DNA from: Candidatus Undinarchaeota archaeon
GTDB lineage: Archaea > SpSt-1190 > JASMDC01
DNA length: 64,000 nucleotides
NCBI GenBank assembly: GCA_964519305.1
Contig: CAZFHY010000019.1
Location: 1-64,000 of the forward strand
Direction of reading: 5' to 3'
Both the position numbers and the translations under genes were made by a program. A model generated the notes under the pieces. It was not told where the DNA came from. It made no database searches and worked only from the letters and a program-made list of their open reading frames with translations. Position 1 is the first letter of the stretch. Every line of letters starts with the position of its first letter. Below are positions 1,070 to 12,084 of the stretch, one piece after another.

Positions 1070-4000
1070 GTGAGCGGGGATGGTCTGGCGAGTCAACGAT
1101 TGAGCCTTGCTCTCCTAGTTATACTTCTACTGCTCACTCCCGTCCAGGCCGGATGCCGTCGGGGCCAGGACTTCCGCGGAGTATCCCAGCAGGTCGAGTA
1201 CCGCGACGGGAGCATGTGGTGCACGAACCTCTGGTACCGTTATAACAACGGTCACTGGGAGGTGAAGGGCAAGGGCCTCTCGAGCAGCTACAACGACGTG
1301 GGCAGCAGCTTCGTCCGGCGCAAGGAAAGCGACATGTGCGACATCTACAAGCGCATAACCCGAGCGCTGCGGTACACTGATTTCGAGGCGGGCGCCCGTG
1401 TCCTCTGGAGAACGATGCACGGCGAGGATGGTGACGATGATGTCATCATCTACAACGACTTCCGTGGGAAGGAGATGGAGGTCGACGACGACACGGTCCT
1501 CGCTGAGGGGGGGTTCCGGGGTATGATCGGACGCAGCCTCAGGGCTTGCCCGAAGCCAACGCCCACACCGGCCCCAACACCCAAACCCCCTCCTGAACCC
1601 ACACCCAAGCCGACCCCCACACCTACTCCGAAGCCAACGCCCACACCCACGCCCCGTCCTCCCGCCCGTCACCGTCTGGCCATCGCTGATGGGTACAACC
1701 AGGGAATCCCTCACGATCCCCCCGACGGCGCCGGCGGAGTGTCGCCCGACGATATCCGGGGGCTCGATATAGGCTCCATGACAGCACCTCCATCCAGTCC
1801 CGTCCAGCTCGGTGCACCGGAGGTACCGTGCACGGGTCAGACGTACGACAACATGGCGGACTATCTCGATGCCATGGCGGCCACCTATGAGGCGCTCGCC
1901 GTCCATTACACCGCCATCGCCGCTAATCTGGTCGTAGTGGAGGATGGGCTGCGCCAGCAGTGCGATATGTGCTCGAAGGCCCTCGGAAGCGTGAAAGGGC
2001 TCGGTTTCGGTCCGTGCGATCCTGCCCTCACGGGCGAGGGGCTCACCGCGGCCGCGGTCGCAGCGAACACGACGCTCGGTCCGTCCCTCTGCCACAGGGC
2101 CGCCGAGCGGTGGTGTGAGCCCCGGGCGCTCAAGGAATGCTTACCAGAGGGAGCTGGCGTGACCGAGGGGCCGACACCGCTGCCCCCGTCAACGGAGCAG
2201 GCGGGTGATAAGCTCCTCCTCCCCATCCCGGGGATGAAGCAGGACCAGGACAAGAGCTATGCTTCGGACACGGGGATGGACGCCCATGTCTCGACAGGCA
2301 CACCCATCCAGGCGGTGGCGGACGGGGCCATCATCTATAGCGAGGAGGGACACACGCCCTGGAACCGACCACCGGACACGCCCAACAGTATCCTCATCAG
2401 GCTCGATAAACCGGTCACCTTCAAAGGCAAGACCTACTATTTCGTATGGTACACGCACCTCGCAAGCTTGGCCTTCAAGGTGAAGGACCGCGGCGAGGAA
2501 CGGCCTATCCGCCGTGGCGAGCGGCTCGGTACGACCGGTATCGGGAACAAGGTCCCCCACCTCCATTTCGGGATCATCGTCCACCGCAGCCAGGGGCCGG
2601 GCCTCTTCATGAAGCCCGAGGACATCCACGAGTACTACTGGGGCTCGGCGAGCTCGCCCGCAACCGATCGAACAGGGGCAGGTGTAGCCGGCGAGGGGTA
2701 TCCTGCATGCTGCCTCGACCAGACCTTCGACAAGGCAACGAACAAGATCGTCGAGGAGCGATGGAACGTGTATACAAGTACCGGTCAGTTCCTGGACAAG
2801 GACTGCGTCCAGGTCCAGGCGGCGTTCGAACGGGCGGACCGGTACCACCGCTACACCAAGAAGACACTCGACGAGTGCAAGGCGCAATGCGGGAACGCGG
2901 ACGGCGCCCGATGCTGTGGGCTCCACTGCTTCGAAGGCTTCCGGTGCGACACATCCAAGTCATACCCTTACAATTGTGTGGCCTTGGCCACACCCACGCC
3001 GGTACCGACCGCAACGCCCACGCCTGCCTCCGGAGCGTCACCTACGCCAAAGCCCACACCGCTCCCCGCACCGGAACCGATCATGGATCCGCTACCCGTG
3101 CCTGAGCGCGTCCGCTCGAGCGTCCATGTGGCGGCAGCCTTACGCTGTCCTCTTTGCGTGGCCATCCCCTGTGCCTATGCCGTGGCCTGTGAAGTGGGCA
3201 CCGCGTCGTCCGGCGAGCGGTGCGACACCCGTGGTTCCTGCGGCGACATAATCCGGGCCGGAGCAGCGACAGGCCTCAGTGGGGGCTACACGTGCACCGC
3301 CGATCCAGAGAAGGGCGATCCCTGCTGCATCAAGGAAGGAGCGACCTGTCCATCCTCGTGCAGCGCGTGCAAGATCGTACGGGCCTCCGTGGTGACGGCC
3401 AGCTCCCGTACGGTGGTGACCCTGCCAACGTCCCTTGCCATGTGCCAGCGCGTCTTCGCTGACCTCAAGGACGCGTGCACTGTGGACGGTTCCGACGTCA
3501 TCACCGGAAAGACGCTGGACCCGTGCGTCACGCGGGACCGAGTGACCGCCGTCAGGGAGAAGCTGGAGGAGCTCGTTACCAACCTGGGCACTGCTGCCCG
3601 CGAGCTGAGGTCCATGGCCCAGGGCGTGCGTGGATCGCTCCGCAACGGCGTGGCTCCCGACGGGACGGAGGGCCAGGTGGAGCGTATGATGGACGCGCTC
3701 TCGGGAGAAGGCTGGGATGGTGCGTCCGTAACAGCGTTCCAGCACGATCTCACAAGGATCGTCACCCTTGCTGGCGGCCCCCTGTTCCGGGACGTGGGAG
3801 GGGCTGCGCCCGCACCGGGCTCCGGTGGGGCTGGGGCTCCTGGTTCGTGGCATGACGCCTCCGCACCTTACACACCCACAGAGGGGACCGGGCTCCGGTC
3901 CGAGGCCAGCACTGCTGCCGGGGAGGAGATTAAGCGCGCGGTCGTGCGATACCGCGGCGGTGACGAATGGGCCACGTTCTGTGGTCGGTACGCCCGGACG

Positions 4001-10249: not shown

Positions 10250-12084
10250 TGCGCTCGCGTCCGTGGACGGGTATCGGCCGGCGACGGGGCCAGGTCAGTC
10301 ATATCGCACTACTCGGCATTTCCCTGGCCGTGCTGATCATCGTGTTCCTCTTCCTCCGCTGGGGACGGGCGGAGCGCGAGGCGCGGACCATCGCCAGGGC
10401 AGGGATCGCGGCCGTTGACGATGCACGGGACCTCGCCGAGATAGTGGAGAGCGCCCTGCGCGATGCTGTGGAGGAGGCTACCTACGAGCTCGGCCGCCAT
10501 GGTGGCTATACATCTGCGACCCTCCCGGGACCCGCGGTCGGTGAGCGTCCCGTGTTCTTCCTAGGTGGACGGATGATACTCTTCCCATCGGTGCGGGTCA
10601 TGGAACAGCTGCTGGGCCAGGAGGCGACACGACGGTTCGGGGCACGGCTCGATGGCGTGCGCGCGGAGGCGAACGGTACCATCTCGTTCGGCGCTCCACT
10701 GGTAACTGTCAAGCTCAATGAGAACTCGGTGGAGGCGTCGCTGGAGCTGACCTACACACTGGACGCCGAGGGGGGGACCACGCGCTCCGTGGAGGATATG
10801 AACGTCATCCTCGATCTCAGGCTGCAGGCCCTCTGGTCGCGGGCGAAGGCCTATCTCGAGGCCTATGCGCGGGAGCGTTACATGGAACGGGCACTGCTGT
10901 CAGGCATCATCAACGACGAGCGCATCCCGAGCCCGCCGGGAGGTCCGGGAGAGACCATGTCGTGCAGGAAGCGAAAGGTCCTGGCGACCTCGGGCGGGAT
11001 GGCTGAACCCTTCTCGGAGAACGCCCGGCTCTCCGTGGCCCGCGAGCTCCAGCGGATACGAGAGGCGGCCGTCGACGAACGAGAGATCGAGTGGTCCATG
11101 CGCCTGGCCTCGGAACGTGTCAACATGACCTTCCTGGCCAATCCCGGTACACCCCTGAAGAGCAATGAATCCATCGAGTACATAGCCGTTCCCATCCCCT
11201 TCATCGACCGACGTGGCGACGTCGATCCCATGTGTCTCAGTCGCTATAACGTGAGCTATACCGCACGGTACCCTGTGATGATGACCGTGCGCGACCTCCG
11301 ACCGGCGGCAAGGGGCGCCCGGACCGGAGGGAGACCGCTGGAGTTCGTGTTCGTGCTCGAACCATTCCTGGCGGGCGTCGATCCCTTCGCCCGGCTCGGT
11401 GAGATATTCCCGCCCTCAGTGGATGACCTGTGCACACCCCACGGACAGTGCGAGATGGAGCTTGCGGTCACCGGGCCGAACGACGTGCCCGTGGACGGTC
11501 GGGCGTGGCTGGACACGTGCGTGTACGGTTTCGAGAAGGGCAAGCTCGAACGGACACCGGTCCCCTGCGGAGAGCGGACCCTCATCGTCGAGGCATTGCT
11601 CCCGCCCGGTCTCGGTCGCTATGTCGAGCGCGTGGACGTGGACGGGCTCCTATCTCGCCGCATCCAGCTAGGCGCACGTGGAAGGGTTCACGGCCGTGTG
11701 TACGTCAACGACCGTGTATGGTGCCCCGATTCGAAACGGGTGAAGGCCGAGGGCGAGCGCTCTCTCGGATTCGTTGAGGGAGTCCCACCACGCGCCGTCC
11801 ACCTCCATCTCGTCCCCCTGGACGGGACCTTGGCGCTCGAGCTGTCCGCGGTCGCTGACGAGGAGGCAAGGTACACCTTCCCCGAGGTGGACGCCGGTTC
11901 GTACATGCTGCTGGCCCTCCCCTCCACCGATGCCGCTAACAGGCCGGCGTACAAGGTACGCTCCCGTGGCCAGGTCGTGACCGTCGGGGCCGGTGACCTC
12001 GAGGTGCCCGTTGAGATGTACCCTCTCATCCCGGTCCACACGAGCAGGGGCTACGAGTACGTCACTCGGGTCGAGGACTGCTGA
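10249..12084 (+). CDS. Large type IV pilin-like protein with a class III signal peptide
   Basis: RRRG|QVSHIALLGISLAVLIIVFLFL fits an archaeal class III (PibD/EppA-type) signal; EATYELGRHGGY motif; C-terminal carboxypeptidase-regulatory-like beta domain; TGATG overlap with the upstream gene. Confidence 0.75.
   Translation: MRSRPWTGIGRRRGQVSHIALLGISLAVLIIVFLFLRWGRAEREARTIARAGIAAVDDARDLAEIVESALRDAVEEATYELGRHGGYTSATLPGPAVGERPVFFLGGRMILFPSVRVMEQLLGQEATRRFGARLDGVRAEANGTISFGAPLVTVKLNENSVEASLELTYTLDAEGGTTRSVEDMNVILDLRLQALWSRAKAYLEAYARERYMERALLSGIINDERIPSPPGGPGETMSCRKRKVLATSGGMAEPFSENARLSVARELQRIREAAVDEREIEWSMRLASERVNMTFLANPGTPLKSNESIEYIAVPIPFIDRRGDVDPMCLSRYNVSYTARYPVMMTVRDLRPAARGARTGGRPLEFVFVLEPFLAGVDPFARLGEIFPPSVDDLCTPHGQCEMELAVTGPNDVPVDGRAWLDTCVYGFEKGKLERTPVPCGERTLIVEALLPPGLGRYVERVDVDGLLSRRIQLGARGRVHGRVYVNDRVWCPDSKRVKAEGERSLGFVEGVPPRAVHLHLVPLDGTLALELSAVADEEARYTFPEVDAGSYMLLALPSTDAANRPAYKVRSRGQVVTVGAGDLEVPVEMYPLIPVHTSRGYEYVTRVEDC

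Follow-up and report, generated by a model that had tools for sequence, protein, structure and literature searches.

The locus described here consists of three closely coupled genes, which we call A, B and C, in a marine Candidatus Undinarchaeota archaeon (GTDB lineage Archaea; SpSt-1190; JASMDC01; assembly GCA_964519305.1). It lies within positions 1 to 64,000 of the forward strand of contig CAZFHY010000019.1, and this stretch of 64,000 nucleotides (nt) is the window to which the positions below refer. The explanation that best accounts for our results as a whole, and which we hold to be somewhat likelier right than wrong, is that the product of gene A is an exported, dual peptidoglycan cutter, the payload of a C-anchored cassette that is specific to this genus. 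We consider it quite probable that A is enzymatically active on peptidoglycan. A first-pass annotation of the same DNA, made from its letters alone, had assigned both a peptide-cutting and a glycan-cutting type of domain (M23 and SLT) to this one protein, and A does carry both. The features of the locus are as follows.

1070-7414, plus strand: gene A, an open reading frame (ORF) of 2114 amino acids (aa) encoding an exported giant protein
2270-2584, plus strand: Peptidase_M23 domain of A (PF01551; aa 401-505), Pfam score 35.9 bits against a cut-off of 28.7
6110-6421, plus strand: SLT-type lytic transglycosylase domain of A (PF01464; aa 1681-1784), Pfam score 27.3 bits for the domain alone, cut-off 21.3
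6590-7411, plus strand: C-terminal module of the A family, about 270 aa with a conserved Cys-rich tail, from jackhmmer over the ORFs of the genome
7418-10249, plus strand: gene B, a 943-aa ORF, exported and stalk-like
10249-12084, plus strand: gene C, a 611-aa ORF, modular and type IV pilin-like
10249-10362, plus strand: class III signal-like N-terminus of C, RRRG-Q followed by a hydrophobic stretch of about 22 residues
1028-1033 (tatata) and 1044-1049 (tataat), plus strand: candidate archaeal promoter, 21-42 nt 5' of the GTG of gene A, from a reading of the sequence

The protein encoded by gene A begins with a signal-like segment and a Pro/Thr linker, continues with the M23 and SLT domains, and ends in a C-terminal module that defines its family. 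The M23 domain scored 41.9 bits in a scan of the genome. When the region from aa 380 to 525 was compared with solved structures, it matched zoocin A, several M23 peptidases, DipM and lysostaphin; zoocin A (5kvp_A) was the alignment partner at the best expect value (E) of 2.1e-4. A sequence search with full-length A against the solved structures gave no match. Residues Y461-T-H463 and H497-L-H499 align with zoocin A and other solved M23 enzymes, and H463 and H497-x-H499 also line up with the other M23 domains of the genome. The H-x3-D zinc motif, in contrast, is not present in A, which reads D400-T-G-M-D404 and so has Asp for His at the first zinc ligand. The position of D400 is occupied by His in zoocin A and in all three paralogous giants of the same genome, the closest M23 paralog reading H-R-G-I-D and the two others H-H-G-L-D. 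D400-x3-D404, Y461-T-H463 and H497-x-H499 are all identical in the ortholog of the sister species, and since Asp400 is found there as well, it is not a sequence error. An Asp at the first M23 zinc ligand is a departure from the definition of the family, and it may or may not affect metal binding. The first-pass annotation had described an M23 domain with its motifs; the Pfam match and the presence of the motifs stood, whereas the first ligand turned out to be non-canonical.

Members of the SLT family have a catalytic Glu in an E-S pair, followed by a motif resembling G-L-M-Q and one resembling A-Y-N-x-G. The SLT domain of A contains QE1696SS, GIMQ and GYNRG. It was matched at E 2.8e-6 when scored alone and at 27.2 bits in a six-frame scan of the genome. 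The region is 54-56% identical to two paralogous domains, with QESS/QEST, CGGIMQVD and FG(Y/F)NRG invariant in all three, and each of three paralogous domains matched SLT at E <= 1. In a single BLASTP comparison with the catalytic domain of E. coli Slt70, the identity was 32% over 65 aa (E 2e-5), and the alignment places QES on QES and GIMQ on GLMQ. Based on these similarities we accept the domain of A as a putative, divergent SLT-type lytic transglycosylase, in agreement with the earlier report of an SLT domain with all three motifs.

The residues of both domains are under strong constraint. Positions 401-15416 of the window are collinear with a contig from the second of the two species in the genus at 83-88% nucleotide identity, a stretch that takes in the upstream tRNA region and the downstream redox genes. 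The A, B and C proteins of that species are 89.8%, 91.8% and 93.9% identical to those studied here and are encoded in the same order. Between the two species the ratio of nonsynonymous to synonymous substitution rates (dN/dS) is 0.11 for A, 0.12 for B and 0.09 for C. Within A, constraint is strongest in the SLT region (dN/dS 0.06; 0.06-0.09 over both catalytic domains), and all seven motif residues checked across M23 and SLT are identical in the sister species.

The contig is archaeal, as had been assumed. The window encodes archaeal Pus10 (299.7 bits, cut-off 200), a ZPR1 homolog (140.3 bits, cut-off 118) and, at 30529-30623 on the plus strand, a 95-nt tRNA that fits the tRNA model only with an insert (Rfam 51.3 bits) and that ARAGORN reads with a four-base anticodon; this tRNA most likely carries an intron. 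Because these archaeal markers, the collinear sister locus and the low dN/dS values agree, contamination, chimerism and pseudogenes are excluded for practical purposes.

The genome comprises 3.63 Mb in 42 contigs and is estimated to be 99.83% complete and 4.29% contaminated. At that completeness it gave no match to Mur_ligase_M, in a search that was positive in 12 of 14 control genomes, which agrees with the lack of mur genes expected in the first-pass annotation. Pseudomurein synthesis also needs Mur-type ligases. The archaeon has no wall based on Mur ligases and encodes four wall-hydrolase families, which argues for bacterial walls as the substrate.

Gene A belongs to a family of giants in this genome. 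An iterative search of the ORFs of the genome with the last 275 aa of A as query recovered 22 giant ORFs, between 1081 and 3129 aa long. Nineteen of the matches are strong, and in these the module lies at the C-terminus or no more than about 30 residues from it, and in nearly all of them the conserved Cys-rich tail ends the protein (the alignment of the module, A7, holds 17 sequences). The C-terminus is conserved in this family and the inner domains vary. Seven of the 22 giants carry M23, NlpC/P60, SLT or a weak glucosaminidase match: M23 was found in four A-family giants (and in one small ORF of the genome), NlpC/P60 in four giants, SLT-type domains in three and the weak glucosaminidase match in one. 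The C12 giant combines an SLT-like domain with M23 (117.5 bits) and NlpC/P60, and M23 (97.6 bits) occurs together with NlpC/P60 in the C10 giant at 38217. At the closest paralogous locus (C10), M23 and SLT are found in two separate genes ahead of their own B and C. The cassette is a general frame whose payloads include wall hydrolases as one class. A dedicated anti-bacterial apparatus, as the locus had been described in the first-pass annotation, is not what we found, since the B-C pair is a general module in about 22 copies and 7 of the 22 giant partners have wall-hydrolase domains.

Two comparisons were rejected. A polymorphic toxin or contact-dependent inhibition system does not fit, as the C-terminus is conserved rather than variable and no small gene follows A in the place of an immunity gene, the next genes being B and C. 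Docking of the cellulosome type was set aside because no dockerin or cohesin Pfam families were found in A, B or C; the likeness is one of logic only, a shared terminal module with varied enzymes. As a separate observation, the 2638-aa A-family giant at C1:22048-29964 has, in addition to the A-type C-terminal module, an internal segment that is 34% identical to residues 50-448 of C (408 aa, E 1e-48). In a protein atlas the C-terminal module of A reached at best 0.81 and B 0.77, with CARDB-like hints, both below the level of a lead.

BLASTP and profile searches identified 22 relatives of B and 22 of C in the genome. All 20 C genes with a B gene in their neighborhood listing adjoin that gene, usually in the order B then C and in five cases C then B. 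Of the 20 intact B-C pairs, ten adjoin a giant with the A module, four adjoin another ORF of at least 1000 aa and six adjoin neither. Together, the A, B and C families account for 6.5% of the genome, and the A module, B and full-length C occur in 2 of 17 species of the class, both of this genus. To our knowledge, 22 sets are far more than in any filament-functionalization system.

For eight cassettes that have an A-family gene beside them, the identity matrices calculated from the A module, from B and from C share the same three sister pairs (Mantel r 0.82-0.95, p <= 0.002), which indicates that A, B and C were duplicated as sets. Such set-wise duplication, as read from the sequences, would fit cognate partners. 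The co-occurrence of a hydrolase with the pilin-like gene, central to the first-pass annotation, was found again in the sister species, at the paralogous C10 locus and in fusions in small-genome relatives (see below), as well as in the co-diversification of A, B and C.

Gene B was modeled with AlphaFold2 using 20 paralogs (predicted local distance difference test score, pLDDT, 85.5). The model is an all-beta chain of about eight tandem beta-sandwich domains. B also has an insert rich in Cys at aa ~450-590 and a Cys at the C-terminus. A Foldseek search with it returned complement C3/C5, A2ML1, CD109 and other strings of the immunoglobulin (Ig)/macroglobulin type at E ~1e-15, with template modeling (TM) scores of only 0.11-0.15, as expected for a flexible chain. 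The label of Ig-like protein given to B in the first-pass annotation appears a fair description of the predicted fold. No homolog of B was found outside the genus: a B profile run against the ORFs of 80 Woesearchaeota loci (see below) gave one weak match only, and hhalign of B with the ~1000-aa protein that follows the second C copy in Woesearchaeota gave 0.5% probability.

The class III signal pattern used by FlaFind consists of a charged residue, Gly or Ala, and a hydrophobic stretch of about 20 residues, and the N-terminus of C fits it: RRRG-QVSHIALLGISLAVLIIVFLFL. In 19 of 21 aligned C paralogs the hydrophobic helix is immediately preceded by R-[GA]-Q, so the class III-type start assigned to the third gene in the first-pass annotation is sustained. 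The AlphaFold2 model of C (21 paralogs, pLDDT 87.5) has a single helix at residues 12-83 (72 residues), a mixed alpha/beta domain up to residue ~395 and two transthyretin/CnaB-like sandwiches at aa 400-594, a long helix followed by strands as in a pilin-like layout. The final Cys is invariant. Fold searches of C, which covered aa 399-597, gave as their top matches 5aq0_B (Z 9.8, root-mean-square deviation 1.6, 80 residues aligned) and the minor pilin GBS52 (3phs_A; Z 9.3, root-mean-square deviation 5.8, 169 aligned). These sandwich matches, including those to Gram-positive pilin domains, reflect a common fold and are no proof of kinship.

Candidate machinery of the type that assembles such filaments is encoded elsewhere in the genome, with four Peptidase_A24 genes, seven T2SSE matches and eight T2SSF matches. 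A T2SSE ATPase gene immediately precedes one paralogous B-C pair; for a second pair, the distance to an ATPase and two platform genes is 6.8 kb, and for a third an A24 gene is about 8 kb away. Additionally, the genome contains small ORFs with the C-type N-terminal motif, one of them beside an ATPase/platform locus. A complex prediction with C aa 84-611, B aa 820-943 and the C-terminal module of A scored 0.00 against a mark of 0.32; controls were not run and the result weighs neither way.

Relatives of C were sought with a full HMMER search of 1.84 billion representative proteins. At E <= 0.001 it returned 7399 of them; 610 passed E <= 1e-10 and 45 passed E <= 1e-30. Of the top 150 matches listed, about 30 are full-length relatives, a number that fits the paralogs of the genus itself; a further set of ~600-aa proteins aligns mainly over the N-terminal 350 residues, and most of the rest are giants that match in the sandwich repeat only. 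An earlier word-indexed search with the C profile, in which 8000 candidates were scored, had given three matches. The distant relatives start with K/R-G-Q and a helix and have a conserved GGY motif; ten of them had no Pfam family at E <= 0.01. A genome scan with their alignment found 197 stretches, of which 186 encode a relative, and 80 of those loci were kept, nearly all from Woesearchaeota or Nanoarchaeota assemblies. In all 12 listed Woesearchaeota-type loci with long flanks, C is followed within ~1.2 kb by an ORF of 1242-2497 aa, and in 9 of the 12 there is a second C copy upstream, then an ORF of ~1000-1116 aa. Six of the giants adjoining C in Woesearchaeota were scanned; none had a wall hydrolase and all matches were of the Ig/fn3 type. 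In this group we also observed a conserved cluster without Pfam names (L097-L173, e.g. L119:2165-16881), in the order C-like protein (~720 aa), ~1000-aa exported protein, one or two ORFs (~170-750 aa), ~250-aa membrane protein, C-like protein (~630 aa) and giant rich in Ig/fn3 domains.

Within the class itself, the other 15 genomes are 0.6-1.2 Mb in size and 72-94% complete. M23 occurs in 6 of the 17 class genomes, namely both large ones and all four of one small-genome family. A relative with a 1.1-Mb genome encodes a 2287-aa ORF with M23 at 59.2 bits (fused giants were found at L179:7077-13937, L180:1031-7129 and L181:5912-9523). Some 1900 residues before its M23 domain, this ORF shows R-R-G, one hydrophobic and one long helix, and two motifs known from the C family, H-G-G-Y and P-Y. 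Its N-terminus matched the C-family profile (A3) at E 1.6e-6 per genome, and hhalign with the C alignment (A1) gave 74% probability (E 2.8e-5, 49 columns). A second relative encodes a 2032-aa protein with a C-like start, for which the profile score is weak (9.7 bits), and M23 at 118.2 bits. In a third, cut by the contig end, SLT (21.5 bits) and M23 (61 bits) were found. The fused giants also contain glycoside-hydrolase-like stretches (Glyco_hydro_39 18.7 bits, below cut-off). Judged from their sequences, the fusions offer the strongest independent indication that the wall hydrolases and the pilin-like module may work as a unit.

We propose the following model. A would be exported, would fold with many internal disulfides and would be held at the cell surface through B and C. 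The M23-type domain would cut peptide cross-links and the SLT-type domain the glycan strand of bacterial peptidoglycan, taken from living cells or from remains. C would be the cell-bound adaptor, whether it is built into a type IV filament in the manner of a minor pilin or sits in the membrane as an anchor, and B would be a spacer or stalk of Ig-like domains. The A-family giants would thus join a common C-terminal module to exchangeable inner domains, in a set amplified about 22-fold. We lean slightly towards the view that A is physically bound to B and C. That living bacteria are attacked on contact, rather than wall debris being scavenged, is possible, short of probable, and display on a filament rather than by a plain membrane anchor appears doubtful.

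Several results weigh against this model. The Asp for His substitution, present in both species, could mean that the M23 domain is weakened or serves in binding only, and Pfam recognized no peptidoglycan-binding domain in A. For the SLT domain, the full-length scan of A gave 21.1 bits, just below the cut-off of 21.3, and hhalign of the region to Slt70 gave only 1.5% probability, although the alignment was the same as that from BLASTP. Furthermore, the region had no relevant sequence match among the solved structures in the Protein Data Bank, either as a single sequence or as a three-sequence profile, and nothing was returned by tblastn against plasmids or by a word-indexed search among proteins of 110-431 aa. 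Fifteen of the 22 A-family giants have no known hydrolase domain, so the cassette as such is not specific to peptidoglycan, and all four that were scanned lacked a Pfam family over its cut-off. B has no Pfam family; C has none at E <= 0.1 and hence no archaeal pilin family. No filament assembly ATPase, platform or A24 gene lies at the A-B-C locus, and the pilus display proposed in the first-pass annotation goes beyond what the locus itself offers. Elsewhere in the genome, three of the seven T2SSE matches are within 15 kb of a B-C pair, against an estimate of ~1.4 expected by chance, so that overall the ATPase genes are barely nearer to the cassettes than chance predicts. Matching trees of A, B and C can be produced by co-duplicating neighbor genes without any binding, and the evidence from fusions rests on short N-terminal matches of 49-81 columns.

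Some of these points would suit a scavenger equally well. On such an account C would be an uncleaved membrane signal-anchor, and the giants would digest wall debris or other polymers as food, with no attack on live cells. The lack of filament assembly genes at the locus and of a Pfam pilin family for C fits this account, as do the glycoside-hydrolase-like stretches in the fused giants of relatives, the size of the genome (3.6 Mb), which is far above that of host-bound relatives in the class, and an ORF content suited to an exoenzyme or adhesin lifestyle: 115 ORFs of at least 1000 aa, mostly with signal-like starts, make up 16.6% of the bases. We nevertheless regard it as unlikely, because R-[GA]-Q before the helix, kept in the C paralogs and in distant Woesearchaeota relatives, would be needless for a mere anchor and because the genome encodes A24 peptidases. 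In addition, enzymes that break through intact sacculi typically unite endopeptidase, amidase-type and glycan-cutting domains in a single protein. The opposite extreme is about as speculative. In that picture the large-genome archaeon would be a contact-dependent killer or predator of bacteria, its type IV filament tips armed through ~22 interchangeable pilin-adaptor/stalk cassettes with giant modular effectors, several of them multi-enzyme drills for the glycan and the peptide of the bacterial wall together, and the small-genome relatives would keep the ancestral, fused single-chain form.

Attachment instead of lysis, with the domains gripping or locally opening the wall of a bacterial partner and the altered M23 acting as a binding module, seems improbable to us. 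It would make sense of the His to Asp change and of the Woesearchaeota relatives of C, whose adjoining giants gave Ig/fn3 matches only (6 of 6 scanned), and giant transglycosylase proteins of DPANN archaea have already been proposed, in the available part of PMC8204110, to attach to bacterial hosts. Strong purifying selection has, however, preserved the SLT Glu and the three remaining catalytic residues of M23, the paralogs include canonical M23 domains (117.5 and 97.6 bits) and NlpC/P60, and a 3.6-Mb genome speaks against obligate host dependence. That the family names mislead, and that the substrate is the cell's own envelope or some polymer other than peptidoglycan, is very improbable: without a Mur ligase domain neither murein nor pseudomurein synthesis is expected, and four wall-hydrolase families within one protein family are hard to explain by another substrate, even though the SLT and M23 matches are weak (21-36 bits) and no peptidoglycan-binding domain was found. 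A bacterial contaminant or chimeric assembly might be suspected from the contamination estimate of the bin and from hydrolase families typical of bacteria. The chance of this is negligible given the archaeal markers and intron-bearing tRNA on the same contig, the collinear region in the second species, a G+C content of 0.59-0.66 across the region against ~0.54-0.65 in the contigs of the genome, and the spread of B- and C-family genes over many contigs in each of the two genomes.

The gene junctions and flanks of the locus add further detail. The TGA of A (7412-7414) is followed by agg and the GTG start of B at 7418, a gap of 3 nt, and the stop of B overlaps the ATG of C as TGATG (10247-10251); the coupling noted in the first-pass annotation is real and its ORF coordinates are exact. 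It had also assigned export signals, and the N-termini of A and B are indeed signal-like when judged by eye, each with a charged stretch followed by a hydrophobic segment. The TATA-like elements 5' of gene A form a candidate promoter. The numbers of Cys residues in A (108), B (26) and C (8) are all even, as they are in 82% of C paralogs. Intermolecular disulfides through the C-terminal Cys residues of A, B and C were dropped, because even counts fit internal pairing equally well; the disulfide-stabilized complex of the first-pass annotation is not supported. The A-B-C stretch was found in eight marine or seawater DNA runs, possibly its source, and at a share of 0.06 in three further runs. There was no RNA run among the sequencing runs listed for the stretch, which says nothing on expression.

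Giant ORFs are a general feature of this genome. Thirty of the 115 ORFs of at least 1000 aa reach at least 2000 aa, one has 8378 aa, and most giant ORFs (for example C1:224716-249852) start with signal-like segments. Giant exported proteins may explain part of the size gap to the other 15 species of the class (0.6-1.2 Mb). A halophilic lifestyle was considered and dropped (median isoelectric point 5.6). The window itself holds a further giant exported ORF of 1954 aa at 42099-47963 on the minus strand, without the A-type C-terminal module; by similarity at the N-terminus, C19:74684-79564 is a likely paralog. At 17310-23755 (minus strand) there is a cluster of three tandem MacB/FtsX-type permease genes, a gene for a 658-aa protein that carries CARDB and NPCBM-associated domains and an ABC ATPase gene. 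A 1227-aa ORF at 25201-28884 (plus strand) has a hydrophobic N-terminal segment and a highly acidic body, rich in Glu, Gln, Lys and Thr and resembling a coiled coil, with no Pfam match; it accounts for the strong A-over-T skew at 26-28 kb. Redox and oxygen-stress genes at 32833-37826 encode a NifS/IscS-type cysteine desulfurase, a flavorubredoxin-type protein, a thioredoxin reductase and a ferritin, a group that hints at a low-oxygen lifestyle. A mobile element at a tRNA-Arg was rejected, as the flanks are collinear in the sister species.

The first-pass annotation knew of no comparable system, which is too strong. Giant DPANN transglycosylases and archaeal hydrolases that kill bacteria are in print, in the excerpts of PMC8204110, PMC9723730 and PMC12352652 cited here. 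As described there, fam00969 is a family specific to Woesearchaeota/Pacearchaeota of giant extracellular proteins with a lytic transglycosylase domain, up to 3000 aa long, proposed to bind or degrade bacterial walls (PMC8204110). Similar genes have been taken as signs of a predatory or 'vampiristic' lifestyle (PMC9723730, in part) and noted in marine DPANN genomes, among which DPANN-affiliated genomes of about 4 Mb are reported (PMC10936187, in part). Like the fam00969 giants, A is a very large, exported archaeal protein with an SLT/GH23-type domain, from a DPANN-affiliated lineage without peptidoglycan, and the same role is proposed. As set apart by the published description, A differs in its added M23 domain (NlpC/P60 in paralogs), the 3.6-Mb genome, the 22-member family with a shared C-terminal module and the B-C cassette. 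An SLT profile found nothing in the 80 Woesearchaeota loci, which were chosen for the C family and not for fam00969.

Small modular archaeal hydrolases, including M23 enzymes, have been reported to kill bacteria, and the Halogranum salarium protein combines M23 with PG_binding_1 (PMC12352652, in the portion available). A resembles them as an archaeal M23-type protein aimed at bacterial walls, made by a producer that lacks the substrate and so needs no self-immunity. In contrast, those hydrolases, as they are presented in that portion, are small and secreted, with one catalytic and one known wall-binding domain, whereas A, at ten times their size, combines two catalytic types and is linked to a pilin-like gene. 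Since it has no recognized wall-binding domain, A would probably escape the screen described there.

A census of archaeal type IV filaments proposes, in its available part, that proteins with class III signals add functions to the machineries (PMC13705601); the words 'peptidoglycan', 'hydrolase' and 'giant' do not occur in its text. The locus shares with filament functionalization a large non-structural module behind a class III-like start, several paralogous sets and a large Sec-exported partner encoded next door. It differs in that C has no known pilin family, the partners are giant enzymes and not substrate-binding proteins or adhesins, and assembly of C into a filament is doubtful.

Bacterial minor-pilin/PilY1 tip complexes and modular pilins also serve as comparison systems. 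The wall hydrolases of conjugation systems and phage virions combine SLT with NlpC/P60, CHAP or M23 in proteins of a few hundred to ~1000 aa. As in A, glycan- and peptide-cutting domains occur there in one envelope-associated protein that makes a local hole in the sacculus. Those enzymes, however, act in DNA transfer on the kind of wall that the producer or recipient itself has, and no conjugation or virion genes flank the A-B-C locus. In the literature searched, we found no cassette that unites a giant multi-hydrolase with an Ig-like stalk and a pilin-like protein, no ~22-fold amplification, no shared C-terminal module and no fused forms, although supplementary tables could list these proteins. 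The general idea is already in print, and the cassette architecture is new.

Little is known of how archaea fight, eat or live on bacteria, the published cases being small secreted hydrolases and the unexplained giant transglycosylases of DPANN archaea. The locus offers a concrete architecture in three parts, an exchangeable payload, a stalk and a pilin-like adaptor, and the two catalytic domains of A are simple to express and assay. The fused form in small-genome relatives would be an evolutionary trace of the link between the pilin-like module and the hydrolases. Finally, as the C family is found beside giant surface proteins in Woesearchaeota, an adaptor of this kind may account for a conserved 'dark' gene cluster throughout much of DPANN.

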